Shown piece by piece: positions 7,278 to 46,644 of a stretch of DNA of 64,000 nucleotides (positions are counted from its first letter, which is position 1; every line of letters starts with the position of its first letter). A program made the position numbers and the translations under genes. A model generated the notes under the pieces. That model searched no databases, had not been told where the DNA came from, and worked only from the letters and a program-made list of their open reading frames with translations. This DNA is from an uncultured bacterium (GTDB taxonomy: Bacteria > Patescibacteriota > Microgenomatia > UBA1400 > UBA12108), in NCBI GenBank assembly GCA_903945195.1, contig CAJAUT010000009.1, positions 23,231 to 87,230 on the forward strand, given 5' to 3'.

Positions 7278-7359
7278 AAGGTCTGACCTGGTCTCCCGAT
7301 TGTATTTTGAAGTCGACTAAACACTCCCTTTGGTCGTCTCCTTAGCAGGTCAGACCTTT
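7278..7359. repeat. MITE-like palindromic repeat, family A (copy A1)
   Basis: Termini aaaggtctgacctggtctcc ... caggtcagaccttt are inverted repeats of each other; the shared core gaagtcgactaaaca occurs in 6 copies in the window. Confidence 0.8.
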
Positions 7360-8318
7360 AACACGGGGGGTGAGGGATCCAGTGGGTGGAAGAAGGCGCT
7401 ATTTATAGTGATGTATTCGCGAGTGAGTTTGGGTCGCATATAAAAGTATTGGAGATGAAAAAGTAAATATTCAATAGTATCCGATAAGGTCTGACCTGGT
7501 CTCCTGATTAACCCTTTAGGGTCTGACCTTCCCGCCTTTGAGTATGCGGGTTGGGCACATCCATCAAGGTCAGACCCTGTAATCACGTTTGACAAATATT
7601 TTTTGATCCAAGGATTGGCGGCAAGGAGAACGTCACGAGTATCTGAGGGATCGTAAACTGGGACAGCTTGAATAAGTTCGTAGGCTGTATAGATAGATTG
7701 CTTATGAGTTGGGAGCAGGTAGGAATCAGGTGTGAGATAAAGATTGAGACAAAGTTTGCCAGAATTATTGATGGAATGGGGAGTGCGGCGAAGACCTAGT
7801 AGAGTGGTGAGAATTGTTAGGATGAATCTGGTAGTCCAGAGTTTACCCTCTGCTGTAATAATCATGAAGTCGATATCAGAGTCGTTTTTTGAGTTATTCA
7901 TGGCAAGGGAACCTGTGAGATAGATTGCTTTGATAAATGGAGCGTGACTTATTTTTTTGGAAAGTGTTATGGCTCTTAATAGTTGAGGATTTGAAGATTT
8001 TAAATGATTGCTGCGACGAGCTACCAATGATTTTTTGCCAGGGAGATGATAATAATCTTGCGTTTGTTGAATCATTTTACTCTTGAGCATTAGCTGCAAA
8101 GTTCCGAACACTCGTTCTAAAGAACAAGGTTCGGAACTGATTAATCGCAAGTGAATTTCTGAGGCGGTGAGGGGGAAGCCGAAGTGATCTGAGTATTTAA
8201 TGGTTTTGATTATTGAAGTTCCGATGAGGTCTGTAATACCTTTAGGGTCTGACCTTCCCGCCTTTGAGTCTGCGGGTTGGGCACTTCCTTCAAGGTTAGA
8301 CCCTTTGGGAAACTTCAT
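7350..8318 (-). CDS. Pol-beta-like nucleotidyltransferase-domain protein; both ORF ends are repeat-derived
   Basis: Central GSLAMNNSKNDSDIDFMII is a GS...DxD nucleotidyltransferase fold motif. The N-terminal GSAQPADSKAGRSDPKG and the C-proximal GCAQPAYSKAGRSDPKGLIRRPGQTL are translations of family B/A repeats, so the true start is probably internal. Confidence 0.45.
   Translation of the reverse strand: MKFPKGSNLEGSAQPADSKAGRSDPKGITDLIGTSIIKTIKYSDHFGFPLTASEIHLRLISSEPCSLERVFGTLQLMLKSKMIQQTQDYYHLPGKKSLVARRSNHLKSSNPQLLRAITLSKKISHAPFIKAIYLTGSLAMNNSKNDSDIDFMIITAEGKLWTTRFILTILTTLLGLRRTPHSINNSGKLCLNLYLTPDSYLLPTHKQSIYTAYELIQAVPVYDPSDTRDVLLAANPWIKKYLSNVITGSDLDGCAQPAYSKAGRSDPKGLIRRPGQTLSDTIEYLLFHLQYFYMRPKLTREYITINSAFFHPLDPSPPVLKV
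7486..7578. repeat. Composite MITE: left half of family A fused to family B (copy B1)
   Basis: aaggtctgacctggtctcctgatt followed by agggtctgaccttcccgcctttgagtatgcgggttgggcacatccatcaaggtcagaccct. The family B core has an internal cccgc/gcggg stem. Confidence 0.75.
8099..8138. repeat. Short palindromic repeat, family C (divergent copy C1)
   Basis: aagttccgaacactcgttctaaagaacaaggttcggaact with termini aagttccgaac/gttcggaact; related to the copies at 12954 and 34776. Confidence 0.5.
8225..8304. repeat. MITE family B (copy B2) with a degenerate A-like left arm
   Basis: ccgatgaggtctgtaatacc + agggtctgaccttcccgcctttgagtctgcgggttgggcacttccttcaaggttagaccct; near-identical to B1 and B3. Confidence 0.75.
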
Positions 8319-11601: not shown

Positions 11602-13956
11602 ATGGACAGCAAATTTGACCACAAGATAGTAGAAAAAGATATTTATGAGGCTTGGGAGAAGTCTGGGGCGTTCCAGCCTAGCTTACAGCCTACAGCAAAC
11701 GGCATACAGCAAAGGCCATTCACGATAGTTTTGCCCCCACCAAATGCTTCTGGCAAGATGCACATGGGTAACGTACTCATGATCGCGATTGAAGACCTGA
11801 TGATCCGCTACCACCGCATGAAAGGCGACCCTACCCTTTGGATCCCAGGTACAGACCATGCAGGATTTGAGACTCAGATCACGTACGAACGCGAACTAAA
11901 GAAACAAGGTAAATCACGCTTTGAGTTTGATAGAGAAACGCTTTACCAAAATATCTGGGAGTTCGTACAAAGTAACAAATCTCAGATCGAGGGACAGATC
12001 CGCCAAATGGGAGCATCTGTTGACTGGAGTAGATACACATTTACACTAGATCCTCATGTTGTCTCGACTGTTTATTCTACTTTTGCCAAGATGCACAAGG
12101 AAGGACTAGTGTATAGGGACAACTACATGGTGAACTACTGCCCCAAGTGTGGCACTACTTTTGCTGACCTAGAAATAATGCACGAGGATAGAGTAGACAA
12201 GCTTTATTACATCAAATACAAAATGGTGGGTAGTGAAGATGGTGTGGTCGTGGCCACCGTGCGACCTGAGACCATCATGCTAGATACCCACATGGCCGTG
12301 CACCCGGATAATAAAAAGACTAAACATTTGATTGGTAAAAAAGTAATCAATCCATTATCTCTAAAAGAGATGGAGATCATAGCCGACTCATTTGTAGACC
12401 CAGAATTTGGGACAGGTATAGTCAAACTGACCCCAGCTCATGACAAAAATGATTATGAGGCGGCGAAGAAACATAATTTACCTGTCATCATAGGGATCTC
12501 TATGGACGGCAAGATGACAAGTGAAGCCGGTAAGTGGGCTGGTAAATCGGTCTTTACAGCGCGTAAAGAAGTGGTTGAAGAACTGCAGATACTTGGTGCG
12601 ATAGATAAAATCAACGAGAAATACGAACACGCTGTGACTGTGTGTTACAAAGGCGGACATGATATAGAACCTATGATCCTACCCAACTGGTTTGTGAAAG
12701 TAGAGTCTCTAAAGAAACCGGCCCTTGAAGCGGTAGAGAGCGGCAAAGTAAAGATATATCCAGAATGGCGCAAGATCACCTACACCAAGTGGATGGAGGA
12801 GATGCATGACTGGCCGATCTCACGACAAGTTGTGTGGGGCATCCGAATACCAGTATGGTACAAGGTCGGACAATCGGAAAATTCAGAAGGTCAGAATGTC
12901 GGAAAGTCAGAAAATCAGAATATTCAGATTACTTTTTTGGCGAAAAATCACAAAAGTTCCGACCACTCGCCTAAAATCACGCAAGGGTCGGAACTGTCAC
13001 ACAAGCCGGTGGTTGTTTCAGGTCGAGTTGGTGAACTGCTACAAAATTATAGTTTTGAGGAAATAAGAGATGGACTGCAAACACTGATCGCACCAGCTGG
13101 ATGTGAGTCTATCGTGAATGAGACGTGCCCAGGGGACGGGTACCTACAAGAAACCGATACCTTTGATACTTGGTTCTCTAGTGGTCACTGGCCGCTAGTA
13201 ACTCTGAAATATCCAGAATCTGAAGACTTTAAGAAATTTTATCCAACGTCTGTACTTGAGACTGGGTGGGAGATCATCCGTTTCTGGGTGTCGCGCATGA
13301 TCATGTTTGGGATATATCTGACAGGTGAGCCTCCATTTGAATATGTCTACCTCCACGGCATGGTGCGGGCGGCTGATGGCAAAAAAATGAGCAAGTCTCT
13401 AGGCAATGTGATAAATCCTGACGAGTACATGGAGCAGTACGGGGTGGATGCCCTGCGCATGGGACTGATTGCAGGTACTGCGACAGGTAAAGATTTTTCT
13501 TTCCCTAAAGACAAGATCACGGCATATCGCAACTTTGGGAACAAGCTCTGGAATATGGCAAGATTTTTCTTGATGATGCAAGAAAAATCTGGAATCACAA
13601 ATCTTAAATTCTCCAATTCTCAAATGGAGGGATTAACTGCGCGAGATAATGAAATTATAAAAATGTTAAATGAGACGATAAATAGTGTGGACAAGTTACT
13701 TGGCGAGTTTAGATTTGCAGAAGCTGGTGACACCATCTACCACTTTATGTGGGATGAGGTGGCAGCGAAATATCTCGAAGAGGTAAAGACGCGCGAAGAC
13801 TTGGGAGTGGCACTATCTGTACTACGACACGTTATCTTAACTGGGCTAAAGCTACTACACCCCTTTATGCCGTTTGTGACTGAGGCGATATGGAAAGAAA
13901 TGCCTAGGAAGCATGATGAGATGCTAATTATTAGTAAGTGGCCTGAAGTTAAGTAA
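11602..13956 (+). CDS. valS: Valyl-tRNA synthetase, with an in-frame repeat/low-complexity insertion
   Basis: HIGH-region PPPNASGKMHMGNVL, KMSKS motif, DTWFSSGHWP typical of ValRS; 784 aa. It includes a family C palindrome plus a SENSEGQNVGKSENQ low-complexity stretch at about 12870..12995. Confidence 0.88.
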   Translation: MDSKFDHKIVEKDIYEAWEKSGAFQPSLQPTANGIQQRPFTIVLPPPNASGKMHMGNVLMIAIEDLMIRYHRMKGDPTLWIPGTDHAGFETQITYERELKKQGKSRFEFDRETLYQNIWEFVQSNKSQIEGQIRQMGASVDWSRYTFTLDPHVVSTVYSTFAKMHKEGLVYRDNYMVNYCPKCGTTFADLEIMHEDRVDKLYYIKYKMVGSEDGVVVATVRPETIMLDTHMAVHPDNKKTKHLIGKKVINPLSLKEMEIIADSFVDPEFGTGIVKLTPAHDKNDYEAAKKHNLPVIIGISMDGKMTSEAGKWAGKSVFTARKEVVEELQILGAIDKINEKYEHAVTVCYKGGHDIEPMILPNWFVKVESLKKPALEAVESGKVKIYPEWRKITYTKWMEEMHDWPISRQVVWGIRIPVWYKVGQSENSEGQNVGKSENQNIQITFLAKNHKSSDHSPKITQGSELSHKPVVVSGRVGELLQNYSFEEIRDGLQTLIAPAGCESIVNETCPGDGYLQETDTFDTWFSSGHWPLVTLKYPESEDFKKFYPTSVLETGWEIIRFWVSRMIMFGIYLTGEPPFEYVYLHGMVRAADGKKMSKSLGNVINPDEYMEQYGVDALRMGLIAGTATGKDFSFPKDKITAYRNFGNKLWNMARFFLMMQEKSGITNLKFSNSQMEGLTARDNEIIKMLNETINSVDKLLGEFRFAEAGDTIYHFMWDEVAAKYLEEVKTREDLGVALSVLRHVILTGLKLLHPFMPFVTEAIWKEMPRKHDEMLIISKWPEVK
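12954..12995. repeat. Short palindromic repeat, family C (copy C2), in-frame inside valS
   Basis: aagttccgaccactcgcctaaaatcacgcaagggtcggaact, 42 bp (14 codons); near-identical to copy C3 at 34776..34817. Confidence 0.65.
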
Positions 13957-14173: not shown

Positions 14174-15202
14174 CTACCTCACCTTTGCTAGGATGTAATA
14201 TGTAGAGGGACCAGAGCCTATTTTTTCTAGAATTTTTAATTTTAGTAATCTAGATATGTGAGATTGAGCTGTCCGTTTAGGAATATATAGAATGTCAGCT
14301 ACGTCAGAACTCGTGATTTTATCTAGTGTTACTACAAAGTCTATAATTTTAAGATCTCCGACAGATAGCTTGCGCTCATGTAATGAACCAGTCCCTGCAA
14401 GTAGAGAATTGATTGATTCTTGGAGATGTAGAGCTTCAACCCAAAATCCTTTTACAAAATATGATATCCAAGATGTGAGATCCTCGCGACCATTTTGAAG
14501 TGCTTCATAATATGATCTACGATCTAGGTTGTAGTATTCTTCAAGTACTAGTCCGCGACGAAAGTCCCATCCTGACTGATAAAGAGAGAGGAGTGTGAGT
14601 AGTCTGCCTGTACGACCATTACCGTCGACAAATGGGTGAATAGATTCAAACTCAAAATGGAGGATGGCGGCACGAATAACTGGGTGAATATGAGGATTGT
14701 TGTTGTGCCACTGTAGCAGTTTTGTGACTAGAGATTTAACCTGCTTGGGTTCTGGTGGAGTATAGACTATTTGGTCTGGCAATCCGGGAGCTGAATTAAC
14801 TATATATACTGGAGCTGTGCGAAACATGCCTGCTTTACTATCAGGTAGTAGTTTTTGCATAGTGATTTGATGAATTTGCAGAAGATCGGCTAAATCAAGT
14901 GTATTTTTTTTTGATAATGATTCAACTTCTGATATAGCTAAAAGATAATTTTCGACCTCTAGTCGATCTTTTGCCGGGGCGAGAAGTGACTGCTTGCTTG
15001 CAATCTTCTCAACGTCTGGCTCAGATAGAGTATTGCCCTCGATGCTAGTACTGCTATGTGCCATTTTGATAATGGCGCGGCGACGGAAAATAGTTTCGCG
15101 TACTGGTAATATCTTGGCTTGCACGATTTTACCCCTAATTTCGGCTATGTCTGATAACCAGGTTAATATTTCATCTGTAATCTGGTACTTCGGATTATAC
15201 AT
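14174..15202 (-). CDS. Fic/DOC family protein with a C-terminal winged-HTH
   Basis: Canonical Fic motif HPFVDGNGRTGRLL. C-terminal DLKIIDFVV...SHISRLLKLKILEK is wHTH-like. Contains an A9 tract in its coding sequence. Confidence 0.85.
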   Translation of the reverse strand: MYNPKYQITDEILTWLSDIAEIRGKIVQAKILPVRETIFRRRAIIKMAHSSTSIEGNTLSEPDVEKIASKQSLLAPAKDRLEVENYLLAISEVESLSKKNTLDLADLLQIHQITMQKLLPDSKAGMFRTAPVYIVNSAPGLPDQIVYTPPEPKQVKSLVTKLLQWHNNNPHIHPVIRAAILHFEFESIHPFVDGNGRTGRLLTLLSLYQSGWDFRRGLVLEEYYNLDRRSYYEALQNGREDLTSWISYFVKGFWVEALHLQESINSLLAGTGSLHERKLSVGDLKIIDFVVTLDKITSSDVADILYIPKRTAQSHISRLLKLKILEKIGSGPSTYYILAKVR

Positions 15203-20011: not shown

Positions 20012-20992
20012 ATGAAGAGAATTGATGATTTACTATCAGAGATAGAAAAAAAGAAACAAAAGCTCAGTGAGCTGGGTAGATTGTCTAGCGTGACGAAGCA
20101 AAATCTGGATGATTGGTACAAGATAGAACTCACATACTCTAGTAATGCTATCGAGGGCAATACCCTCTCTAGAGCAGAAACCGCACTTGTAGTAGATAAA
20201 GGATTAACTGTTGCGGGCAAGTCGATTCAAGAACATCTAGAGGCTAGTAATCATGCTCAGGCATGGGAATGGATTATAAACCGAGTCTCAAAGAATAATT
20301 ATATTTTTAGAGAAAATGATTTGCTTGAGCTACATCAGATAATTTTGCGTCGAATTGATGAGACAAATGCGGGCAAATATCGAAATGTTCCAGTTAGGAT
20401 CGCTGGATCGCGAGTGATTTTGCCGAACCCTGTGAAGGTATCAAATTTAATGAAGGTGTACTTTGAGTGGCTTTTGGGAGAGCATAATAATTCTGTACTG
20501 AGAGCTTGTGATGCTCATTATAAACTTGTAAGTATTCACCCTTTTACGGACGGCAATGGACGGACTGCACGACTAGTTATGAATTTGTTGCTACTAAGCA
20601 GTGGATACCCACCCATAATTGTGAGAAAAGAAGATAGACACGAATATCTAACTAGTTTGGAGACTGCACAGCTTGGGGGGGCTCTAGATAAGTATTATCA
20701 ATTAATGTTGGAGGGTTTATCTAGATCTCTTGATATTTATCTAGAAGCTACAGGAGCAAAAATACAAGTTGACAAAAAACTACTTAAAATGGGAGAGCTT
20801 GCAAAAATCACAGGAGAGAGCGTGCCAACTATCAGATACTGGGTAAAAATGGGACTGCTGCCTGTTACTGGTGAGACTAAGGGTGGATATCAGTTGTTTA
20901 CTCGTGAGCTAGTGAAAAGAGTAGATAAAATTCGAGAACTTCAGAGAGAGAAAAGATTGAGTTTGGAAGAGATAGCGCAAGAGCTAAGTTAA
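20012..20992 (+). CDS. Fic/DOC family protein with a C-terminal MerR-like HTH
   Basis: Fic motif HPFTDGNGRTARLVMN. C-terminal MGELAKITGESVPTIRYWVKMGLLPV is a MerR-type HTH. Contains a G7 tract in its coding sequence. Confidence 0.85.
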   Translation: MKRIDDLLSEIEKKKQKLSELGRLSSVTKQNLDDWYKIELTYSSNAIEGNTLSRAETALVVDKGLTVAGKSIQEHLEASNHAQAWEWIINRVSKNNYIFRENDLLELHQIILRRIDETNAGKYRNVPVRIAGSRVILPNPVKVSNLMKVYFEWLLGEHNNSVLRACDAHYKLVSIHPFTDGNGRTARLVMNLLLLSSGYPPIIVRKEDRHEYLTSLETAQLGGALDKYYQLMLEGLSRSLDIYLEATGAKIQVDKKLLKMGELAKITGESVPTIRYWVKMGLLPVTGETKGGYQLFTRELVKRVDKIRELQREKRLSLEEIAQELS

Positions 20993-22700: not shown

Positions 22701-23585
22701 ATGAACAAAAAGTCGTTGGGAACAAGTTACATATTAATCTCGGCTCTATTTTACGGGAGCTATGGCATATGGTCACGCCTAATGGTGGGTGCGTTTGGAG
22801 AGTTTTCGCAGGCATGGACACGCGGACTATTGCTACTTGTTGTGGTCCTATTACTAAACTGGAAACTAAAATTTATCAGGAAAATTGAGAAGAAAGACTG
22901 GAAGTGGTTTTTGGCCATTGCGATAGCTGGCGGAATAAACCAGGCACCATACTTCCTAGGCTTTGAACATTTATCCATTGGTACTGCCACACTACTTTTT
23001 TATGCATCACTGGTAGTTGGTGGGTATATCCTGGGCAAGATATTCTTTAATGAGCGCATGACAGTGGTAAAAATAGTTAGCTTACTAGTCGCAATTTTTG
23101 GCATGGTGTTGATCTACGGCTTTACACTTACCCCTAGTCAAGTGTTTCCGGCAAGTATGACTGTGCTGGCTGGGTTACTTGGTTCAAGCACGGTGATACT
23201 TTCCAAAAAATTGGTAGGTAACTATCATGAGCTCCAGATCATGCTTGGATATTTTATCTGTCAGGTATTATTTAACTACCCGATGGCCCTGATTCTAGGA
23301 GACGCACTACCAGTACTGCAGATCAGCACTCCATGGCTAGGGCAACTTGGATATGCTATTGCGATGATGCTGGCCAATATGGCAGCGATCACTGGATTTG
23401 GATATCTAGATCCTAGTATTGGCAGTTTGATCGGACTGGCCGAGATACTATTTGGAGTGATATTTGGAGTGCTAATTTTTGGAGAGGTGCTTGGGGCTGG
23501 AGTAATAGCTGGTGGGATATGCATCATTTTGGCGGCAGCACTACCTAGTTTGGTGGAAATGAAACAAAAGACTATTTGGATTTAG
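22701..23585 (+). CDS. DMT-superfamily (EamA-like) transporter
   Basis: 294 aa, 10 predicted TMs with a two-repeat architecture; divergent from TrmB paralog 2. Confidence 0.65.
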   Translation: MNKKSLGTSYILISALFYGSYGIWSRLMVGAFGEFSQAWTRGLLLLVVVLLLNWKLKFIRKIEKKDWKWFLAIAIAGGINQAPYFLGFEHLSIGTATLLFYASLVVGGYILGKIFFNERMTVVKIVSLLVAIFGMVLIYGFTLTPSQVFPASMTVLAGLLGSSTVILSKKLVGNYHELQIMLGYFICQVLFNYPMALILGDALPVLQISTPWLGQLGYAIAMMLANMAAITGFGYLDPSIGSLIGLAEILFGVIFGVLIFGEVLGAGVIAGGICIILAAALPSLVEMKQKTIWI

Positions 23586-24318
23586 CGCGGGCAAGCTCAT
23601 CGGTTAGGAGCATGGTGAGATCAGGGATGATTTGATCGACTTCGAATTTGAAGTTTTTGGGAGGGAGAAGAGGATTTAGGTCTACATAGAGATCGCTTGC
23701 TTTAAGAGTATTTTTGACAAAATCTAGCAATCTTCTTATATGCTCTTCATACGAGGTGCCCATCCGCTCCTCTACTACTGCCCTGTTTACGGGGAGGCCG
23801 GCAACCATAAATTCGCGCAAATCGAAAAAGTCTCTACCTGCCGCGCGACCTTTTTCGTCGTAACGGTTTAATGCAGCTACAAATTTATTGGCGACCATAG
23901 TGGATATGGTCTGTACGCGGCAGACAAGACCAAGCTCTTTTAGAGTAACTGTCTCGTACTCGTTTGCTGGACTGATGCGATCACTAACTTCTAGTTTTAG
24001 GGTATTTCTTTGCGAGCCAGTCGCCTCATACTTTAGAAAAAATTGTAAGTGATGCTGGCTTTCGTCTGATACGCGAAATTTTAGTTTTGTAAAAAGTAGG
24101 TGAAGTTTATCTTTGATTTTGGATTGTAAAATTGCGTCAGTCGTCAAGATATCAAAATCTAGATCTATGGAGAACCTATTTATGAGTCCCATGATTGCGG
24201 CGTAGGACCCACCTTTAAAATACAGTGAATTGGCAATAATTGGATCTTTGAGCATGGCGGTCAAGAGCTTGAACATGTTGGATTTGTGGCGCATGTCCAT
24301 AGATTTAGGTACTAGCAT
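23572..24318 (-). CDS. AbiEii-family nucleotidyltransferase toxin (type IV TA/abortive infection)
   Basis: LYFKGGSYAAIMGLINRFSIDLDFDI matches the AbiEii/DUF1814 GG..A and S.DLDF motifs; 248 aa; overlaps the upstream AbiEi gene by 14 bp. Confidence 0.7.
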   Translation of the reverse strand: MLVPKSMDMRHKSNMFKLLTAMLKDPIIANSLYFKGGSYAAIMGLINRFSIDLDFDILTTDAILQSKIKDKLHLLFTKLKFRVSDESQHHLQFFLKYEATGSQRNTLKLEVSDRISPANEYETVTLKELGLVCRVQTISTMVANKFVAALNRYDEKGRAAGRDFFDLREFMVAGLPVNRAVVEERMGTSYEEHIRRLLDFVKNTLKASDLYVDLNPLLPPKNFKFEVDQIIPDLTMLLTDELARAKSK

Positions 24319-33731: not shown

Positions 33732-34187
33732 TTACTGTTGTGCATCTAACGCTTCGTTTACAAGTCCGTCGGCAACTGAGTTACCCTCTCTATAGGTATG
33801 GGAAATCTCATATTTTTTTAGCGTGGCCAGAAGCTTTTTTACTTCTAGATATTTTGGCAACAAACCAGGGTTTTTCACTTTAAACAGCCCTTTTATTTGG
33901 TTTACGATGAGGAGTGAGTCCATTTTTATGACCAGTTCGGCTTCTGGCTCGTTGTCTACCACCCATTTCACTCCGTGCAATAGTGCTTCGTACTCTGCAA
34001 TATTATTGGTGGTAATGCCGATATATTTACCGCATTTTTCCAGAATCATTCCTGCACCAGAGGTCGCTGAGGCTCCCACTGTGGCAGGCAGGCCCGCACC
34101 AGAGGTAATATCTTGGATAACATAACCATAAGCGGCAGGGCCTGGATTGCCGCGTGAGCCCCCGTCAGTGTTTAAGAGTAGTTTCAT
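33732..34187 (-). CDS. rnhA: Ribonuclease HI
   Basis: TDGGSRGNPGPAAYGYV and the DEDD catalytic pattern; 151 aa. Confidence 0.85.
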   Translation of the reverse strand: MKLLLNTDGGSRGNPGPAAYGYVIQDITSGAGLPATVGASATSGAGMILEKCGKYIGITTNNIAEYEALLHGVKWVVDNEPEAELVIKMDSLLIVNQIKGLFKVKNPGLLPKYLEVKKLLATLKKYEISHTYREGNSVADGLVNEALDAQQ

Positions 34188-35397
34188 GGGAAAAGTATAA
34201 CAGAGCGAGGACTAGAAATCCCTCGGTTAGTCCGGTATTTATGGCTGCGGCAATGGCTCCATAAGAGGGGATTAATAGCAGATTGAGGTTGGCGTTGAGA
34301 ACTGCTCCAGAGATATAGATCCCTAAAACTAGCTTGTCTTTTTTTTGACCGATGAGATTCCACATCAGTGGGGCGGTGATGTAGAAGAGGGGAAGGGAGA
34401 GAGATAAAATGCGCAGAACATTTGAGGAGAGATCCATGCCGGGTCGGACTAGATTGACCAGGGGAGAGGAGATCCAAAGTAGAGCAGCAACAAAAATACC
34501 AATTATGGCGAGAGTTTTAGTTGTTTGAGAGATTAGTTTTGCGCGGTATTTTTGCTGAGACTCCTGCATAGAGATGGGATATATCACGTTCATGACAAAC
34601 ACAGGAAGAACTAAGATGACATCAAAAATGCGATATGCAAAGCCATACTGACCAACTTCGCTCGAGAGGCGATAGACTCCTAGGATTATGGTGTCGATTT
34701 TGCTGGCTATCACACTGGCGATAATGATTAGGCCCAGAGTGAGAGAGCGACGAATAAGTAATAGAATGGGCTGCAAAGTTCCGATCACTCGCCTAAAATC
34801 GCGCAAGGATCGGAACTCAAGCGACAAAAGACAAATTGAACAAATAGCCATGGTGAGGTAGCCCAAGGTGTTGGCTAAAACCAGATAGGGGAGAGTGGGG
34901 GAGTAGCGCAAATAATATAGCGTCAGACCTGTCCCAACCAGAGAACCTATTACCACTGAGATTGTGGATTTCCAGTATGAGAGCTTGTATTGAAACCAAG
35001 AGTTGCCAGAGGTATAAAGACCCTGAAAAATGATGGCTAAGCTGCCCAACCAAAAGACTGACTTTACCTCCGAGGAATAACCTCCTGGCAAAGCTAAAAT
35101 AACCAAATTCAAAACCCCAATAACCAAGAGGGAAAGGAATATCCTGGCTAAGATAATTTTATAAACATGCTGCTGCATTTCTGAGTCGTTTTTGGAGGAG
35201 CGAATGCCTTCTGCATTTAAGCCAAAATCGATAGCTGTAAAGCCAACCGCCACCAAGACTAAAATTCTAGTTAAATCCCCATAAAGCTCGAGCCCTGCCA
35301 GGCGGATAGTGAAGTAGGTGGTAATGAGGGTGAGGCCAGCGCCAAAGAACTTGGCTACTAGCTGAGCGAAAGTGTTGCTAGCGATTTTTTTGAGCAT
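34165..35397 (-). CDS. MOP-superfamily polysaccharide flippase (Wzx/MurJ-like)
   Basis: 410 aa, about 12 TMs, polysaccharide-biosynthesis-protein-like N-terminus; contains family C palindrome copy C3 in-frame. Confidence 0.6.
   Translation of the reverse strand: MLKKIASNTFAQLVAKFFGAGLTLITTYFTIRLAGLELYGDLTRILVLVAVGFTAIDFGLNAEGIRSSKNDSEMQQHVYKIILARIFLSLLVIGVLNLVILALPGGYSSEVKSVFWLGSLAIIFQGLYTSGNSWFQYKLSYWKSTISVVIGSLVGTGLTLYYLRYSPTLPYLVLANTLGYLTMAICSICLLSLEFRSLRDFRRVIGTLQPILLLIRRSLTLGLIIIASVIASKIDTIILGVYRLSSEVGQYGFAYRIFDVILVLPVFVMNVIYPISMQESQQKYRAKLISQTTKTLAIIGIFVAALLWISSPLVNLVRPGMDLSSNVLRILSLSLPLFYITAPLMWNLIGQKKDKLVLGIYISGAVLNANLNLLLIPSYGAIAAAINTGLTEGFLVLALLYFSHETTLKH
34776..34817. repeat. Short palindromic repeat, family C (copy C3), in-frame inside the flippase gene
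   Basis: aagttccgatcactcgcctaaaatcgcgcaaggatcggaact, 42 bp; differs from C2 at about 3 positions. Confidence 0.65.
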
Positions 35398-36865
35398 GAA
35401 TGTAGTTTAGCACTGGGGATGACGTTGATAGATATAGCATAAGAATAAACATCCCCTGGGGGGAGGTGAGGAGGTAATGGTCGAAGAGGAGAAGGGGAAG
35501 GATGGGGAAGAATACTTTGAGGGTCTGACCCGGTCTCCAGATTGTATTTTGAAGTCGACTAAACATCTTGGCTGATAGCCAGGATTTCCTTAGCGGGTCA
35601 GACCCTGAGAGCAGGGCGAAAACTCCAAAAATGCCAAACCAAGATAAGAATAATGTGAAAGAGTTGTGGTCGGGCTGTAGTAGGCGGACTGAGGAATCGA
35701 CGCTGGGATAGGTAGAAATACTACTTTGGGCTCCGGTGCCAAAGACTGGAAATGAGCGAGCTACAGAAAAGGAGAGATTCTGCAAAGTGATGCGTCCTGA
35801 GCTTGAGAGATCACTGCGGGGAGGAATGATTAGAGATGGTAGATAGTAGGTCGTAGATAAAATGACTACGAAGTATATGAGTGAATATTTAATATTTTTA
35901 ATTAAATAGAAGGGAATGATGATCCCAAATAGAGAGATGGCGGCTGAGCGAGACTGAGTAAGGATGACAAGTAACACCACTGGAATCAGGAGTACCCATA
36001 GGGTCTGACCCGGTCTCCAGATTGTATTTTGAAGTCGACTAAACATCTTGGCTATTGGCCATGATTTCCTTAGCGGGTCAGACCCTTTGGCTGCAGGGTA
36101 CAACTGTAGAATTATTAGCAAACTAATTACGGCGTAACCTGCGAGAACGTTGGGGTGGGAAAAGGTGCCATAGGCTCTAAGTACGACTTGATCCATAAAT
36201 GAGCCTAGGGCGATGCCAGGAGAGCCCACAGATACCATCCGCTCGCCTAGGTAGTACATAATCCCGCCGACATAGTGACCTAGGTAGACTTGGGCCACTG
36301 CGAGGGTGGTTTGGAAGAAAAGGGAGAGGGTGAAGGCGAGAGGAATCACATAGGTTGCAACTGTAGGGTCTGACCCGGTCTCACGGCTTGTTTTTGAGGT
36401 TCGACTAAACATCTTGGCCGTTGGCCAGGATCTCCTTAGCGGGTCAGACCCTTGGGGCGAGAACGTGGCTGCAAAGAACAAAAAATACAAAAGGAAGTGG
36501 AGAGACCAGGAGAGAGTGGCGAGGGGATTCTGAGAGTAGAGGAGGTTGACTAATAATATGGGAGAAATCGCACCTATAGGGTCTGACCTTCCCGCCTTTG
36601 AGTCTGCGGGTTGGGCTCTTCCTTTAAGGTCAGACCCTTTAATCGCAAAGAACAAGATAATTAACAAGTCTAGGAAGTAAAGGGTGGGGGAGAGATAGTC
36701 GATGCGAATGCCGTAGACCAGGGTAGAACTAGGCCAGAAATGGAGACCAAACTGAGTGGCACCAAAAAAGATGATAAGGACGGCTAAATACTTAGACAGT
36801 TTTGAGAGAGATGAAGAGCCTTCTGTCTTGACCGTGGCCGTCTGAGTAACTCGTGAATTCTGCAT
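35378..36865 (-). CDS. O-antigen ligase-like (Wzy_C/WaaL family) membrane protein carrying four in-frame MITE insertions
   Basis: Polytopic membrane ORF of 495 aa. The repeat-derived segments GRAQPADSKAGRSDPIG (family B) and 3x GSDPLRKSW..AKMFSR..RPGQTL (family A) interrupt otherwise hydrophobic helices. Ligase call is by architecture and the AQVYLGHYVGG...SHPN region; the start overlaps jag, so the true start is probably downstream. Confidence 0.45.
   Translation of the reverse strand: MQNSRVTQTATVKTEGSSSLSKLSKYLAVLIIFFGATQFGLHFWPSSTLVYGIRIDYLSPTLYFLDLLIILFFAIKGSDLKGRAQPADSKAGRSDPIGAISPILLVNLLYSQNPLATLSWSLHFLLYFLFFAATFSPQGSDPLRRSWPTAKMFSRTSKTSRETGSDPTVATYVIPLAFTLSLFFQTTLAVAQVYLGHYVGGIMYYLGERMVSVGSPGIALGSFMDQVVLRAYGTFSHPNVLAGYAVISLLIILQLYPAAKGSDPLRKSWPIAKMFSRLQNTIWRPGQTLWVLLIPVVLLVILTQSRSAAISLFGIIIPFYLIKNIKYSLIYFVVILSTTYYLPSLIIPPRSDLSSSGRITLQNLSFSVARSFPVFGTGAQSSISTYPSVDSSVRLLQPDHNSFTLFLSWFGIFGVFALLSGSDPLRKSWLSAKMFSRLQNTIWRPGQTLKVFFPILPLLLFDHYLLTSPQGMFILMLYLSTSSPVLNYIHAQKNR
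35520..35606. repeat. MITE family A (copy A3), inside the ligase ORF
   Basis: gggtctgacccggtctccagattgtattttgaagtcgactaaacatcttggctgatagccaggatttccttagcgggtcagaccct. Confidence 0.8.
36000..36086. repeat. MITE family A (copy A4), inside the ligase ORF
   Basis: Near-identical to A3 (about 95 percent identity). Confidence 0.8.
36365..36452. repeat. MITE family A (copy A5, divergent left arm), inside the ligase ORF
   Basis: agggtctgacccggtctcacggcttgtttttgaggttcgactaaacatcttggccgttggccaggatctccttagcgggtcagaccct. Confidence 0.75.
36578..36638. repeat. MITE family B (copy B3), inside the ligase ORF
   Basis: agggtctgaccttcccgcctttgagtctgcgggttgggctcttcctttaaggtcagaccct. Confidence 0.8.
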
Positions 36866-38025: not shown

Positions 38026-38235
38026 TTATGGAATAGGGTCAAATCCGCCCTGAGACCATGGATGACATTTTAACAGTCTTTTGATAGATAACCAAGCGCC
38101 ATAGAAGAGGCCGTGCTTGGTGAGGGCTTGTTTGGCGTACAAGGAACAGGTAGGGGAGTAGCGACAACGACCCGCGGAAAGGCCCATGTTGCTGGCAATA
38201 GCTTTAAAATAAACCAGGATTTTGTGATAGTTCAT
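38026..38235 (-). CDS. yidD: Membrane protein insertion efficiency factor YidD
   Basis: [15 protein letters not shown]...[13 protein letters not shown], the signature YidD/hemolytic-domain motifs; 69 aa. Confidence 0.85.
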
Positions 38236-38557
38236 TTTTGATTAGATCCTCTGAAATTTTACCTTTTATTAACGCCATTGGTTTAAACATCACAATGCAA
38301 TCTAGATTCTTATCTTTGATCATTTTCCAGACTTGGTCATAAACTAGTCTTTTAAAAGAGTTACGAGCCACGGCGCGTTTATTTACCTTGACTGGGACTA
38401 TTACCGAGAGGCGAGAATCAAACTCCCGGAGTTTGATGTTGCCTGAACTCCGGGAGTTGAAGAGAATCCGGAGATGGGGGGTAGTAAATTGTTTTGCTTT
38501 TGCACGAAATTCTAGAAACTGAGTGCGCGTTGGAAATTTGTTGGATTTGGAAATCAT
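38204..38557 (-). CDS. rnpA: RNase P protein component, with a probable short in-frame palindrome-derived insertion
   Basis: 117 aa; RnpA-like RNR motif region ([15 protein letters not shown]). The family D palindrome tcaaactcccggagtttga plus a second aactccgggagtt half encode [15 protein letters not shown] inside the protein. Confidence 0.75.
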
Positions 38558-38586
38558 TTAGATATTATACGATGGAATATGATTTT

Positions 38587-39213
38587 TTATGCTGGAAGAC
38601 TGTTAAATGCTTGGTGGATTGCGGTCCCCACGTATTTTGCAGCAGAATTTTCGAGTTGTCCCGTCACGGAGTTGGGCCAGCTGGAGGGGGCCGAAAGGTG
38701 AATATTGCGCGGGCGAAGTAATCCTGGGACATTATTTTTATCGGTTTTCTTTCTAGGTTCATCTGAACATTCTATGTCCATGGTTAATCCAGTTTTTTCA
38801 TTGATTACCACAGTTAGTATTATTGAGCCGCCCGGGGATCTTTCTTTTGCGGCTTGTGCCAAAAATTGGAATTTCTCTGGACCACCCATCAACTGAATTG
38901 CTATGCCAAGCATTGATTGTTCATCTTGGGCCGTTTCGTCACTAACCTCCTGAGTGAGGATTGTGTAGCCCCATTCTTTTTTTTCTCGAGTGACTTTTTG
39001 CGTAAGATCTCCATACTCAGATGTATTACCAACATGTTTCAGGAGTTCCTCGTCCGAAACGGGCGCTCCAGATTCTTGACCGGCCCTCAATATGTCTCCG
39101 ATTTTAGACCTAGCGTCTGATGATGCAAATACATCTACCCAATGTGAATTTAATGCTTGCGTAAACGCAAGGGTTGCCCCATTTTGCAAATCTTCTGTCT
39201 TTTTTTCCATCAT
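38587..39213 (-). CDS. Hypothetical protein inserted between rpmH and rnpA
   Basis: 208-aa ORF with no recognisable motif or TM; co-directional, 30 bp upstream of rnpA and 48 bp downstream of rpmH. Confidence 0.4.
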   Translation of the reverse strand: MMEKKTEDLQNGATLAFTQALNSHWVDVFASSDARSKIGDILRAGQESGAPVSDEELLKHVGNTSEYGDLTQKVTREKKEWGYTILTQEVSDETAQDEQSMLGIAIQLMGGPEKFQFLAQAAKERSPGGSIILTVVINEKTGLTMDIECSDEPRKKTDKNNVPGLLRPRNIHLSAPSSWPNSVTGQLENSAAKYVGTAIHQAFNSLPA

Positions 39214-39261
39214 TATGAATTATTTATAGCACAATTTGAGCTTCGACCACTTGGAAAATAT

Positions 39262-39399
39262 TTAGACGGTCAATTTGGCGCGACCTTGAGCGCGGCGGCG
39301 AGAGATGACAAGGCGACCCTTATGGGAAGCCATGCGGATACGGAATCCATGGGTATTGCGGCGCTTGATTTTTTTAGGTTGATAAGTTCTTTTTGACAT
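39262..39399 (-). CDS. rpmH: Ribosomal protein L34 (not in the supplied ORF track)
   Basis: Manual reverse-complement translation gives [45 protein letters not shown], a canonical L34 sequence; 45 codons. Confidence 0.85.
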
Positions 39400-39477
39400 T
39401 TCTGGATTTTAACACAAGAAGAGTGGATTTGTCACGGTGGGAGATAGTTTAGATATATTGTCTAGTGTGGAAAAGTT

Positions 39478-40845
39478 GTGGATAATGAGCTCATGGACAT
39501 CATATCAACTTGGAAGGCTGTACTTGGAGAACTAGAGGTTTCTATCTCCCCTGTATATTTTCCCACTTGGATCAAGCCACTATCAATTGCTTCGATAGAA
39601 AAATTGAGCGAAGAATCTCAGCTAGTAACTCTCCTTTGCCCGTCGGCTTACCACCAGACAATGGCTACTCAAAGATACCAGGGCCAAATCCAACGAAGTC
39701 TAGAGAGAATTACAAATTTAAAAACTGAACTGGCATATATTGTGGGGAAGGATGCTTCCACAAGTTTAGCGGCAGCACCTTCACCACTTTTTGATCCCAC
39801 TCCGCCTGCGGCTACGCTTGGGACAAGTGGACACCACAACCTAAACCCCAAGCTGACTTTTGAGACATACGTGGTTGGAGGATCCAATAATTTTGCTTAT
39901 GCGGCAGCACAGGGAGCGGCCAAGTCTCCGGGCACGAGACACAACCCACTCTTTATATACGGGGGAGTGGGACTTGGGAAAACCCACCTGATGCAGGCGA
40001 TAGGGCATGCAATATACAAAGACCATCCCGACTGGAATATCATGTATATCTCGGCAGAGACTTTTGGAAGCGATTTAATCGCGAGCTTACAAAATAAAAA
40101 GACTGCAGCTTTTAAAAAGAAGTATCGAGCTCCTAATGTGCTTTTAATTGATGATATCCAGTTTATCGCGGGCAAAGAATATACCCAAGAAGAGTTTTTT
40201 CACACATTTAATGAGTTGTATATGTCTGAGAGACAGATTGTGCTTACATCCGATCGTCCTCCACAAGAGATCCCAAAGATCGAGGAGAGACTGTCGTCTA
40301 GGTTTATGGGCGGACTTATGGTGGATATACAATCTCCCGATTTTGAGACTCGGGTGGCCATCCTTACACAAAAATGTAAGGCCTTAAATATTGAGGTACC
40401 CAGCGAAGTGATTGGTCTTATGGCTGAGAAAACTACTACCAACGTCAGAGAGCTAGAGGGGGCTCTACAGGGGATATTGACCAAGTCACTACCTAGTGGA
40501 GGCGAAATAAACAGCGATATGGTGCGCGAGTATTTTGGGGCTGAACATGAAAGGCGGAGCCAGAGAATCAAGCCAAATACGGTGATAAACAAGACAGCTT
40601 CATATTTTTCCTTCAAGCCAGCCGAACTTGTGAGCTCGAGTCGCAAGGCCCCGCTTACCAATGCCAGGCACACTGCCATGTATTTGCTTTATAAAGAACT
40701 GCATCTGCCATATGAGCAGGTAGGTAGACTATTTGGTGGACGAGACCATACAACTATTATCCATGCCGTTGAGAAAATTGAGGAAAAAATAAAGACCGAC
40801 CCAGAAATGGCAAAGATTATAGCGGATATAAAGCACGATTTATGA
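39478..40845 (+). CDS. dnaA: Chromosomal replication initiator DnaA
   Basis: AAA+ Walker A GGVGLGKTHL, sensor motifs and a C-terminal DNA-binding domain; 455 aa. The GTG start lies within a tgtggataa DnaA box, and an in-frame ATG at 39493 is an alternative start. Confidence 0.95.
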   Translation: MDNELMDIISTWKAVLGELEVSISPVYFPTWIKPLSIASIEKLSEESQLVTLLCPSAYHQTMATQRYQGQIQRSLERITNLKTELAYIVGKDASTSLAAAPSPLFDPTPPAATLGTSGHHNLNPKLTFETYVVGGSNNFAYAAAQGAAKSPGTRHNPLFIYGGVGLGKTHLMQAIGHAIYKDHPDWNIMYISAETFGSDLIASLQNKKTAAFKKKYRAPNVLLIDDIQFIAGKEYTQEEFFHTFNELYMSERQIVLTSDRPPQEIPKIEERLSSRFMGGLMVDIQSPDFETRVAILTQKCKALNIEVPSEVIGLMAEKTTTNVRELEGALQGILTKSLPSGGEINSDMVREYFGAEHERRSQRIKPNTVINKTASYFSFKPAELVSSSRKAPLTNARHTAMYLLYKELHLPYEQVGRLFGGRDHTTIIHAVEKIEEKIKTDPEMAKIIADIKHDL

Positions 40846-41087
40846 AAAATATAGTTATCAACATATCTTGTGGGAAACTCAGTGGAAAGGTGAGGGGATG
40901 CGAATGTGGAGAACTTACACAATTGAGGATAACTAGAGTTGTCCACAAAGCAGGTGAGTTATTCACAAAGTTATCCACAAGGTTTTGCACGCGATTTACA
41001 GAGAGCTTTCCACGAATCCACCGGCTCTACTACTACAACTAGTTTATTTAATATATATTAGTGATAGCTATAAATAAGGGACAAATT
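40846..41087. other. oriC: DnaA-box cluster and AT-rich unwinding element between dnaA and dnaN
   Basis: ttgtccaca (40939), ttattcaca (40959), ttatccaca (40971), tttccacga (about 41007), then the AT-rich stretch agtttatttaatatatattagtgatagctataaataa at 41041-41077. Confidence 0.7.
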
Positions 41088-42185
41088 ATGAAAATAGAAG
41101 TTTTGCAAGAACAGCTCGTAGCCGGATTTAATATAGTGGGGAGAGCTGTGGCAAGTAGAGCTCAGCTACCCGTACTTTCTCACATCCTGATAGAGGCTAA
41201 AAATGAAGGGTTAGTATTGTCTGCGACAGACCTAGAGATAGGAATCAAAATAAAGGTGTCTGCAAAAGTGATAGAGCCAGGAGTGGTAGCGGTACCAGCC
41301 AAGATGTTTGGGGAGTTTTTGGCATCACTTAATCCTGGAAAGATAGAACTTAAGTCTGAAGGAGAATCTCTATCTTTGAAGGCACCTGGGTATAACGGGA
41401 AATTCCAGACTATAAATGCAGAAGAATTTCCTTTGATCCCAGAACTTTCCACAGAAGCCGAGATTTGTACTTTAGAAGCCAAGGCCTTGTCCACTGCCGT
41501 ATCTCAAGTCGTGTTTGCCAGCGCCAAAGATAGTTTACGCCCAGTGCTGACGGGCGTGCTCTGGGAGTTTTTGAAGAAAAAGGTGAGACTGGTAGCGACT
41601 GATGGGTTTAGACTGGCAGTGGAAGAGATCTCTGTCGACACGAAGACTGAGCTGACAAGTCTACTTGTCCCATCTAGAGTGGTGATGGAAGTGGTGAGAC
41701 TGGCTGGGGAAGAAAAAATCATAGTTGGACACTTACCAGCGACTAATCAGATTTATTTTGTGGTGGGTGAGACTCAGATAGTGTCTCAGCTATTGTCTGG
41801 TAATTTCCCGGACTATAACAAGATTTTGCCAAAGGAATTTACGACTGAAATCAAAGTGAATAAAGACGAGCTTTTGCAGGCTATAAAGGCGACTCATATC
41901 TTTGCTAGAGATAACTCTAATATGGTGAAGTGGCAAGTAGCTGAAGAAAAGCTAGTACTCTTGTCGAGTTCTCCAGAGCGAGGGGAATGTAGAGTAGAGG
42001 TGCCAATTACTCTGACTGGAGATGATATTGAGATAATATTCAACGCCAAGTATGTCCTTGATTTTTTGGGAATTGTCGGAGGGGATACACTGTGGATAGG
42101 ACTAGGAGGGAAGCTGTCTCCTGGAATGATTAAAGATGTCGCGCGTGAAAACGGGCAGTATGTGGTAATGCCGATAAATGCGTAA
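41088..42185 (+). CDS. dnaN: DNA polymerase III beta sliding clamp
   Basis: 365 aa from MKIEVLQEQL, typical three-domain beta clamp (the track start at 41061 gives 374 aa). Confidence 0.9.
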   Translation: MKIEVLQEQLVAGFNIVGRAVASRAQLPVLSHILIEAKNEGLVLSATDLEIGIKIKVSAKVIEPGVVAVPAKMFGEFLASLNPGKIELKSEGESLSLKAPGYNGKFQTINAEEFPLIPELSTEAEICTLEAKALSTAVSQVVFASAKDSLRPVLTGVLWEFLKKKVRLVATDGFRLAVEEISVDTKTELTSLLVPSRVVMEVVRLAGEEKIIVGHLPATNQIYFVVGETQIVSQLLSGNFPDYNKILPKEFTTEIKVNKDELLQAIKATHIFARDNSNMVKWQVAEEKLVLLSSSPERGECRVEVPITLTGDDIEIIFNAKYVLDFLGIVGGDTLWIGLGGKLSPGMIKDVARENGQYVVMPINA

Positions 42186-42194: not shown

Positions 42195-42281
42195 AAGATC
42201 TGACCCGGTCTCCTGATTGTGTTTTGAAGTCGACTAAACATCTTGGCCTTTGGCCAGGATTTCCTTAGCGGGTCAGACCTT
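42195..42281. repeat. MITE family A (copy A6), intergenic between dnaN and virB4
   Basis: agatctgacccggtctcctgattgtgttttgaagtcgactaaacatcttggcctttggccaggatttccttagcgggtcagacctt. The track ORF 41894..42298 is its translation. Confidence 0.8.
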
Positions 42282-44210: not shown

Positions 44211-44256
44211 ATATTCAAAGTATACAGTACTGCCCTTAGTACCAAAAGGGCTTGGG

Positions 44257-44895
44257 TTATTTGGTAATATTGGGGGCGACTATGGCTTGTTCGTAGTCGG
44301 AGGCTGTCGTGAACTTTTGACCTTTGACCGTCGAGTTATAAAGTGAGTGGAATAGCTTCATGAGATTCTGAGAGTTTACCTGTTCGGCAGCCAGTCCGAT
44401 TCTACTCAACTGTTTAATGATGTGGTCCCTTTTTGGTTCTAGATCGGCCTTGGCTTTTTGAATTAAGTCTTCAGTTATTTCTACTTTTCCAGAAAGGGTG
44501 ATGATTTGGTATGAAACTATCAAATAGAACTTTTTATCCAAAACATTTTGCTCTGTGATTGTAGTATCTATAAACTGGCGATAATTGTGCATGCGCTCTT
44601 TGAGAATTTCATCTTTAAGCTTTTTTTCTTGTGTGGCTAGTAGTTCTAGATAGGCGCTAATATCTTTTTTTTCAGATTTGATGACTATTTGAACCGGGAA
44701 AGAAAGGGAGTTGAGTAGTCCGGCATAGGCATAAATAGTCGCGTCTTGCTCTTCTTCAGATAGTAAGCCAAAATTGATTGCGGAAGTCTTTATGACAACA
44801 CTACAGATGCCGTTCTTTAGAATAACTAGATCATCTCGAATTGTTTCGATGTCTAAATGATCTTGGGTTGTTGCGACAATGATTGAGTCAGACAT
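44257..44895 (-). CDS. Hypothetical soluble protein in the T4SS operon
   Basis: 212 aa, no TM and no motif recognised; position between the PrgI-like gene and virB4. Confidence 0.35.
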   Translation of the reverse strand: MSDSIIVATTQDHLDIETIRDDLVILKNGICSVVIKTSAINFGLLSEEEQDATIYAYAGLLNSLSFPVQIVIKSEKKDISAYLELLATQEKKLKDEILKERMHNYRQFIDTTITEQNVLDKKFYLIVSYQIITLSGKVEITEDLIQKAKADLEPKRDHIIKQLSRIGLAAEQVNSQNLMKLFHSLYNSTVKGQKFTTASDYEQAIVAPNITK

Positions 44896-44951
44896 AAATA
44901 TTAGTATAACCTAAAATCACAAATCCTAAATTCTCCAATTCTCAAATTATT

Positions 44952-45953: not shown

Positions 45954-46011
45954 ATATTAACAGTTTATCAGAGAATCATTACGCTACGCACGCGCAACAC
46001 TAGACAAAGAT

Positions 46012-46635: not shown

Positions 46636-46644
46636 AGTTTTATT

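Follow-up and report, generated by a model that had tools for sequence, protein, structure and literature searches.

How does a repeated palindrome come to lie in frame inside an essential aminoacyl-tRNA synthetase gene? The question is raised by valS, the valyl-tRNA synthetase (ValRS) gene in a 64,000-nt stretch of DNA (the window) from an uncultured Microgenomates-group bacterium of the Candidate Phyla Radiation (CPR), which carries a short palindromic element of a type that we call family C. An initial annotation of the window proposed that this segment is a mobile-repeat insertion. Our results support that proposal: the nearest ValRS orthologs do without the segment, and the same repeat family is present in many unrelated genes and genomes. 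Three family C copies lie in the window, each within a long open reading frame (ORF):

11602-13956, plus strand: valS, encoding an intact class I valyl-tRNA synthetase of 784 aa, from the ORF list and its translation (Pfam tRNA-synt_1, 2e-122, and Anticodon_1)
12946-12995, plus strand: family C element in valS, made up of the tag ATCACAAA (12946-12953) and the palindrome (12954-12995)
34165-35397, minus strand: polysaccharide flippase (Pfam Polysacc_synt), host of the second copy
34768-34817, plus strand: family C element in the flippase gene, tag GGCTGCAA and palindrome, antisense to the gene
7350-8318, minus strand: nucleotidyltransferase-like ORF (Pfam Polbeta/NTP_transf_2), open through four repeat insertions
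8092-8138, plus strand: family C variant of the 39-nt class, antisense to its host ORF, with the palindrome at 8100-8138

A pattern search over the whole window with the 42-nt motif of the initial annotation gave exactly two matches, 12954-12995 in valS and 34776-34817 in the flippase gene, with 0.00 expected in shuffled sequence, which bears out the reported near-identity of the two elements. The divergent copy suspected in the nucleotidyltransferase-like ORF was recovered as a 39-nt variant by an arms-only pattern (AGTTCYGANC...GNTCRGAACT). All three copies fold into a hairpin with a 10-bp stem, and the DNA folding z-scores against shuffles are −3 to −5 for these copies and −3 to −6.8 for family C. 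The valS copy has the stem AGTTCCGACC/GGTCGGAACT around an asymmetric 21-nt loop, ACTCGCCTAAAATCACGCAAG, and is read in frame as (H)K-SSDHSPKITQGSEL (residues about 450–465). The flippase copy encodes EFRSLRDFRRVIGTLQ in a loop between transmembrane segments; the variant has the stem AGTTCCGAAC/GTTCGGAACT, a self-complementary loop core (GTTCTAAAGAAC) and the translation SSEPCSLERVFGT. Stem position 9 is C:G, T:A or A:T among the three copies, both arms changing together. Ahead of the palindrome, family C carries a conserved asymmetric 5′ extension (the tag), usually TC[G/A]CAA and at minimum AA. Its density in the window is about one copy per 20 kb. An Rfam scan of the whole window matched only a tRNA (485-556); at the elements it found no RNA family.

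If the valS segment were native to this enzyme, related synthetases should share it. A search of a collection of 5.8 billion proteins gave many close ValRS orthologs from Microgenomates, Woesebacteria and WWE3-type CPR bacteria, of which we aligned 120. This alignment, which the initial annotation had proposed as a test of its reading, comes out in favour of that reading. The nearest relatives (P0002–P0004), 96–97% identical outside the variable region, are element-free and read TFL-NKEKK-V-ISG where the window reads TFL-AKNHK-SSDHSPKITQGSEL-SHKPV-VVSG, and the repeats are dispersed elsewhere. An ancestral segment without copies elsewhere, lost in the empty lineages, is already contradicted. 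The protein is 37 residues longer than its shortest close ortholog (784 versus 747 aa), 18 of them from a low-complexity block discussed below and 19 from the palindrome site; the earlier figure of about 45 extra residues thus proved too high.

Only four of the 120 orthologs are filled, namely that of the window and P0011, P0014 and P0022, all at one site. P0022 has a 36-nt form of the element; the form in P0014 is 60 nt long, and inside its loop is nested CCTGCCTGCGCAGGCAGG, a palindrome of 18 nt. In a neighbor-joining tree from which the variable region was left out, the filled alleles are scattered. Sliding-window identity places the window valS nearest to the empty allele of L001, its nearest relative, along the whole gene with one exception, where it is nearer to L003, a distant filled ortholog:

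12941-13025, plus strand (ends approximate): tract specific to the filled allele, consisting of the element and its valS-specific flanks (sliding-window identity and codon alignment)

Codon alignment of filled against empty alleles gives a net gain of 57 nt (19 codons). The filled alleles have in common an upstream flank of about 15 nt (GCG AAA AAT CAC AAA) and a downstream flank of about 33 nt (G TCA CAC AAG CCG GTG GTT GTT TCA GGT CGA GTT). Because these valS-specific flanks are shared, the four filled alleles look like a single insertion that was spread or kept among lineages by recombination, and repeated independent insertion into valS was rejected in favour of this reading. The loop of the element we read as having been converted later between size classes. 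A 9-bp direct repeat, ATCACA(A/C)AA, possibly flanks the valS copies and is perfect in L006 (ATCACAAAA).

Mapping onto the structure, which the initial annotation had proposed, places the insertion in a surface loop that is predicted to be disordered. An AlphaFold model of the ValRS has a mean predicted local distance difference test score (pLDDT) of 86.8 and a predicted template modelling score of 0.83. The pLDDT falls below 50 at exactly residues 451–465 (K451–L465), between strands 442–447 and 470–475, so that the element is modelled as lengthening the turn of a β hairpin, with its peptide forming the disordered tip. The low-complexity residues 423–440 are likewise poorly ordered (pLDDT 65–70, and below 50 at 428–432). 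In an alignment with the T. thermophilus ValRS (1GAX, E = 2.4e-151), residues 6–421 and 507–782 align and residues 422–506 stand in place of 1GAX 418–438; both inserts are therefore inside a lineage-specific module that follows the editing domain and runs from the WGIRIPVWY strand to the DTWFSS motif. The HMGN and KMSKS motifs are present and intact. The insertion is probably neutral for catalysis.

To what extent is valS a special case? A census of family C and its distribution over genes drew on species-representative genomes, metagenome contigs and viral contigs, with about 1.15 Mb of Microgenomates-type contigs as the related DNA. The species-representative genomes hold 43 copies on 31 stretches from about 12 metagenome-assembled genomes (MAGs), several of them labelled Microgenomates, and the metagenome contigs add at least 90 further stretches. 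De-duplication left 130 distinct matches in the 1.15 Mb, of which 129 are true; the match in an Actinomycetota MAG (L017) differs in its internal sequence and was dropped as a chance hit. The scan of viral contigs gave zero matches, leaving a phage origin unsupported. Several MAGs in which family C occurs together with genes of clear CPR type bear the titles ‘uncultured Pseudomonadales’ or ‘Gammaproteobacteria’ (L007–L035), and these labels look wrong.

Most of the 129 copies are in frame inside genes. Among 124 oriented matches (123 true orientable copies and the chance hit in L017), 114 fall in frames that stay free of stops for at least 100 codons, and the rest are at contig ends or, in about five cases, likely intergenic. 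CPR genomes typically have a high coding density, and the in-gene share of family C roughly matches genome content; in contrast to REPs and most MITEs (both described below), family C is not kept out of genes. More than 20 different host genes carry the element; many copies are orthologous, so the counts exceed the number of independent events. Hosts identified by Pfam include topoisomerase I (TopA), leucyl-tRNA synthetase (LeuRS), a class II aminoacyl-tRNA synthetase, MnmA, LepA, QueA, TrmD, Obg, UppS, Wzy, DUF192 and an ATP-dependent DNA ligase with two copies per gene. A 1149-aa membrane protein has five copies, each read as [E/G]SQSSEHSL[A/S/T]QGSELG. That an essential aminoacyl-tRNA synthetase tolerates the insertion, which the initial annotation had singled out, is thus true but not exceptional here: the family also reaches LeuRS, the class II synthetase, TopA, Obg, TrmD and DNA ligase, and insertion tolerance in essential genes is the rule in this lineage, not the exception.

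Family C is conserved as DNA. From arm end to arm end the copies measure mainly 41 and 35 nt, with minor classes of 39, 50 and 59 nt; counted with the invariant preceding A they measure 42 and 36 nt, lengths divisible by three. At stem pair 9, 68 copies have T:A, 55 have A:T and six have C:G, so that 129 of 129 are complementary there; at pair 6, 119 have C:G, seven T:A and two T:G, and one is mismatched. The 59-nt class (nine census copies) has the GC-rich palindrome CCTGCCTGCGCAGGCAGG (peptide PACAGR) nested in the loop; examples with this element-within-element look are L005 6979-7037, L087, L115, L120 and the flippase ortholog P0134. In L035 (2607-2620) and L037 (4344-4357) an extra partial 3′ arm (GATCAGAACT and GATCGGAACC) follows within about 12 nt of a family C copy, which hints at arm duplication or abortive events. 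Among sense copies, 77 of 84 are read in one frame, SS[D/E]HS...QGSEL. When translated, the consensus of the 36-nt class is also open in both remaining forward frames, and that of the 42-nt class in one of them. Other frames are used by the antisense copies, giving EFRSLRDFRRVIGT in membrane-protein loops, SSEPC...CSEL and others. This frame use fits selection for a harmless hydrophilic loop peptide and speaks against a common peptide function.

The principal new finding is the orientation of the copies. The two ends of the loop (ACTCGCC...GCGCAAG) differ, so each copy can be oriented, and the ACTCG strand is the G-rich strand of the contig in 123 of 123 true orientable copies, with no inverted pair and no opposite-orientation copy among them. 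Relative to the host ORF, 84 copies are sense and 30 antisense. Loci with every gene on the minus strand still have a G-rich plus strand, and at mixed-strand loci both gene sets have the same skew sign; the skew is therefore not a gene-strand effect. Three other repeat families follow the same strand: families A (87 nt; 6/6 in the window, 13/13 overall) and B (69 nt; 3/3 and 11/11), and the non-palindromic family D (33 nt), with 18 of 20 copies on the G-rich strand. The asymmetry extends to the 5′ flank of family C, which has A at −1 in 120 of 121 copies, A at −2 in 106 of 121 and C or A at −3 (commonly TC[G/A]CAA, also GCTGCAA); the 3′ flank does not mirror it. The window includes a classical origin neighbourhood (38204-42185, with minus-strand rnpA, yidC and jag and plus-strand dnaA and dnaN), and repeat orientation tracks the skew, not the position of dnaA. 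An excess of G over C usually marks the leading strand. If it does so here, the G-rich strand is the lagging-strand template. The GC-skew strand that family C follows is probably the replication strand, and the near-absolute polarity points to a fork-coupled single-strand mechanism.

Other repeats are present as well, two of them in valS itself:

12865-12928, plus strand: low-complexity block encoding G423–N440 (GQSENSEGQNVGKSENQN), about eight imperfect TC[A/G]GAAAN units (Tandem Repeats Finder)
13593-13625, plus strand: family D, a 33-nt non-palindromic dispersed repeat (AATCACAAATCTTAAATTCTCCAATTCTCAAAT), read as ITNLKFSNSQ in ValRS hypervariable loop 2
44915-44947, plus strand: intergenic copy of family D (repeat comparison)

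ValRS orthologs vary at two loops, after W419–Y420 and around residues 660–680, and loop 1 ranges from no insert to many different inserts. The low-complexity block in loop 1 repeats imperfectly at periods of 8, 24 and 33 nt (basic period 8). Its sequence confirms the unusual run that had been noticed ahead of the valS element. The run is not a member of a repeat family, as its occurrence at a single locus in the 1.15 Mb, with no further copy except the orthologous valS segment in L001/L002, puts it outside any dispersed family; it is best described as a local expansion with an 8-nt period. The unit TC[A/G]GAAA resembles the family C 3′ arm core, TC[A/G]GAAC. Construction of the block from family C arm units (TC[A/G]GAA) is suggestive only and, given no dispersed copies and no inverted partner, was set aside as speculation.

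Family D is A/T- and C-rich without G, consists of about four TCTCAAAT-like 8-mers, and occurs in and between genes. The valS copy is 97% identical to the intergenic copy in the window and to copies in L007, L011, L014, L026, L031 and L034, and L001 has a copy too. Across ValRS orthologs a set of discrete loop peptides recurs (SEKGEV, KSQISNSPILKLG, ITPLHQSTIKPL, TSPKASLGA, QMTNDK.. and ITNLKFSNSQ), several of them at both loops, and KSQISNSPILK in P0005 is family D translated in another frame. In a strain variant, P0241 (96% identical overall), both the low-complexity block and the family C element are retained, and loop 2 has TSPKASLGAGEIKWYEPN where the window has family D. The flippase loop and two nucleotidyltransferase-like sites also hold different families in different genomes. 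Flippase orthologs P0123–P0128 (88–91% identical) are element-free, and P0122, P0131, P0132, P0134 and P0178 have the element. The variant at 8092-8138 is at the same site in L008 and L031, and absent from L003 and L006; L005 has a related palindrome. Its host ORF further contains family B at 8238-8306 and 7512-7580 and a family A fragment at 7481-7509. At the C-terminal site of this gene L003 and L006 have family C, the window has B and the A fragment, and L005 has another insert. Alignment of the window with the syntenic L038 and L001 gave no clean target-site duplication; the loops are too diverged, and L038 has repeats of its own.

Do these properties correspond to any known element? The Rickettsia palindromic elements (RPEs; Ogata et al. 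2000, 2002), as summarised in PMC10969869, are the nearest in outcome. In both systems several palindromic families lie in frame in unrelated housekeeping genes of a small-genome bacterium, form hairpins (here a 10-bp perfect stem, 129/129 complementary at the variable pair), add fold-compatible peptide segments, lack a known transposase and vary in presence among orthologs, as family C does in valS, the flippase gene, the nucleotidyltransferase-like gene and other hosts. Family C (36–42 nt) and families A and B (69–87 nt) are, however, smaller than RPEs (about 100–150 bp), the host, judged by the names of its homologs, belongs to the CPR/Microgenomates and not to Rickettsia, and the likeness noted here is one of description. 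The conserved 5′ tag and the strict skew polarity are features of family C. We know of no report of skew polarity for RPEs.

In architecture, repetitive extragenic palindromes (REPs) are closer. They have a guide sequence 5′ of the hairpin foot (PMC6006769), and the REP-associated tyrosine transposase (RAYT, TnpA_REP), a Y1 enzyme, acts on single-stranded DNA (PMC6006769, PMC3333891). Like REPs and the composite REPINs, which are imperfect palindromes of 20–40 nt, family C (35–41 nt) has a 5′ guide at the hairpin foot and forms species-specific families with subfamilies. Unlike REPs, whose tag is GTAG, CGTC or GTGG, it has TC[G/A]CAA or GCTGCAA, and whereas REPs are extragenic and often in inverted pairs (REPINs, or bacterial interspersed mosaic elements), family C is overwhelmingly intragenic (114/124), single and in one orientation. 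Insertion sequences (ISs) of the IS200/IS605 type show an orientation bias toward the lagging-strand template, a signature of single-strand transposition by Y1 transposases (PMC5027513). They and the palindrome-associated transposable elements (PATEs) resemble family C in being strand-specific, in needing neither terminal inverted repeats nor target duplication, in inserting 3′ of a short target or guide, and in having subterminal hairpins. The 123/123 bias to the G-rich strand corresponds to theirs, the lagging-template assignment assuming the G > C leading-strand rule. IS200/IS605 derivatives are much longer, with two distinct end hairpins, whereas family C has one hairpin. Of the features of transposable elements of the miniature inverted-repeat type (MITEs), inverted arms are present and a 9-bp direct repeat is seen at the valS copies only, not at most others, with empty sites too diverged for junctions.

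Small dispersed repeats of cyanobacteria, of about 20–30 nt, were reportedly described by Elhai and colleagues in 2008 as mobile-looking, nested and frame-preserving inside genes. The nesting recalls the 18-nt palindrome in family C loops, a likeness again by description only; phylum and sequences are different. For these repeats no replication-strand polarity is known to us. They receive a passing mention in PMC2884548. Our search of the literature on CPR, Patescibacteria and Microgenomates for palindromic or in-frame elements found nothing relevant. Family C is thus the RPE phenomenon in outcome and is closest to REP and IS200/IS605-type hairpin elements in architecture. It fails defining features of three of these types: the size and host of RPEs, the tag, extragenic position and pairing of REPs, and the two ends of IS200/IS605 elements. 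A regular target duplication, as in MITEs, was not seen at most copies.

The combination of a 5′ tag at the hairpin foot, as in the REP design, with a lagging-strand-template bias, as in IS200/IS605, leads us to a preferred mechanism. We consider it reasonably probable that family C, as a small DNA repeat that is dispersed and non-autonomous in a Microgenomates-group (CPR) lineage, spreads through single-stranded DNA in connection with the replication fork. The element consists of the short asymmetric 5′ tag TC[G/A]CAA and a hairpin whose 10-bp stem closes a variable loop; without the tag it measures 36 or 42 nt. New copies would arise by a strand-specific process at single-stranded fork DNA, most plausibly an HUH/Y1-type (REP–RAYT or IS200/IS605-like) reaction on the tag and hairpin, and existing copies may be homogenised or swapped by gene conversion and allelic recombination. 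Since coding density is high, most insertions land in genes. Purifying selection would then retain copies whose length is a multiple of three, which bring no stop, and which are read in a benign frame in a permissive loop. In valS, one insertion may have extended the β-hairpin turn, the filled allele having since moved among lineages by recombination.

Several observations weigh against this mechanism. A Pfam scan of about 55 window ORFs found no transposase or integrase, and hence no cognate RAYT (Y1_Tnp) or parent IS; tblastn of the 1.15 Mb with an approximate IS200 TnpA query gave no match, a weak test. RAYT-type genes are usually single-copy and divergent. A weak TnpA match in L011 (E = 0.01) was inside a large membrane protein, disappeared in a larger database and was rejected as spurious, and the product of the ORF with an RVT_3/RNase_H match at 33732-34187, which Pfam RNase_H also matches, looks like an RNase H-type protein and shows no sign of a reverse transcriptase. 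As no transposase was found, single-strand mobilisation at the fork is a step that we infer. The family C tag is neither GTAG nor CGTC, and there is one hairpin in place of the two different ends of IS200/IS605 derivatives. Family D shares the polarity yet has no hairpin, so the hairpin is not the whole explanation. GC skew does not switch at dnaA–dnaN; its sign is positive to either side, and the cumulative curve climbs monotonically across the 64 kb, so that the leading-strand assignment rests on general knowledge and not on a mapped origin. The 9-bp direct repeat at valS would suit a transposon with target-site duplication and is not seen at other copies. The element often takes the place of native sequence of similar length, as at the flippase and nucleotidyltransferase-like sites; this blurs the boundaries, so that neither precise junctions nor target duplications could be established. 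Finally, the peptide insert is itself a prediction from open frames.

Could the repeats have spread without any transposase? Template switching or microhomology-mediated repair, together with gene conversion between loops, would make the hot spots simply indel-tolerant loops. The same loops do hold different families in different orthologs, a cassette was swapped between 96%-identical strains, elements replace native sequence rather than add to it, the loop class (36, 42 or 60 nt) varies within an apparently single valS insertion, non-palindromic family D has the same polarity, and no transposase was found. Such a process alone nevertheless leaves both the near-absolute polarity and the existence of distinct, conserved tag-plus-hairpin families across many genomes unexplained, and we think it unlikely. 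Somewhat more doubtful again is a classical MITE, whose arms would be the terminal inverted repeats of a deleted DDE-type IS moved in trans by cut-and-paste with target-site duplication. A length of 36–42 nt falls below usual MITE sizes, even though the arms are perfect inverted repeats and families A and B (69–87 nt), with related termini (AGGTCTGACC compared with AGTTCCGAnC), are MITE-like in size. The direct repeat ATCACA(A/C)AA at valS, perfect in L006, is what a MITE would leave; the upstream tag, conserved at most copies with no matching downstream repeat, is not. Nor would DDE-type insertion be expected to yield a 123/123 orientation bias, and no parent IS or transposase was seen among the window ORFs.

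Two further explanations are less likely still. The elements might be selected polar chromosomal signals, such as priming or restart hairpins on the lagging template or signals like Chi or the FtsK-orienting polar sequences (KOPS), for which frame compatibility is secondary. A skew polarity that is absolute whatever the gene direction, a stem kept by changes on both sides, and the density in the window would all agree with this. Close relatives, however, lack individual copies with no apparent replacement nearby, loop length varies freely to the point of accepting nested palindromes, several unrelated families share the polarity (one of them without a hairpin), and known polar signals are short oligomers; we regard this explanation as quite improbable. 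Least probable, and largely refuted, is a native lineage-specific ValRS insertion or functional peptide module that is not repeat DNA. The one frame of 77 of 84 sense copies (SS[D/E]H..GSEL) could suggest selection on a peptide, but the 30 antisense copies encode quite different ones (EFRSLRDFRRVIGT, SSEPC..CSEL), it is the DNA that is conserved, with its stem complementarity, the nearest orthologs are without the segment, and the segment is predicted to be disordered.

Beyond fork-linked spread of family C itself, a wider possibility that we put forward only tentatively is that Microgenomates-group CPR bacteria harbour an undescribed class of very short elements, with palindromic and non-palindromic families. 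Such elements would undergo strand-specific copying at the fork with no transposase that can be recognised, colonise permissive loops of essential proteins and be exchanged between strains as cassettes. If true, this would add a mechanism of mobility that is new and would keep supplying streamlined proteomes with variation in surface loops. Palindromes that code for protein in frame have been regarded as peculiar to Rickettsia, and a much smaller, independent version in the CPR shows that they arise again where genomes are reduced and leave little room between genes. The strict skew polarity makes the mechanism testable. The elements inflate and diversify CPR proteins at hot-spot loops and can confound ortholog alignments and phylogenies. 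They also offer strain-level markers, and in fragmented MAGs their orientation can serve to mark the direction of replication.

Families A and B also occur together in a neighbour of the flippase gene:

35378-36865, minus strand: Wzy_C (O-antigen ligase-like) ORF, 495 aa, whose reading frame stays open across three copies of family A and one of family B

The family A copies (87 nt each) are at 35520-35606, 36000-36086 and 36366-36452 and the family B copy (69 nt) at 36572-36640, and the peptides they encode include GSDPLRKSWPIAKMFSRLQNTIWRPGQTL and GSDLKGRAQPADSKAGRSDP; in L038 the syntenic ortholog has only 367 aa. A 21-nt near-perfect self-palindrome, ATCAAACTCC[C/G]GGAGTTTGAT, occurs at 38417-38437 and 61162-61182, once inside the rnpA ORF and once between genes, and may be yet another small palindromic family. 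Near valS (14174-15202, 20012-20992 and 23572-24318) are two Fic/DOC-domain proteins, one fused to a MerR helix-turn-helix domain, and an AbiEii toxin-like protein, and TrmB-family regulators occur four times in the window (15256, 21855, 27559 and others). A type IV secretion-like cluster extends from 42273 to 59437 and includes a TraG/VirB4-like P-loop ATPase (42273-44210), a PrgI-domain protein (44952-45953) and several very large ORFs without Pfam matches. It also has about six small ORFs, paralogous to one another and arranged in tandem (57336-59437), of which the two that were scanned both match Pfam T4SS_pilin.

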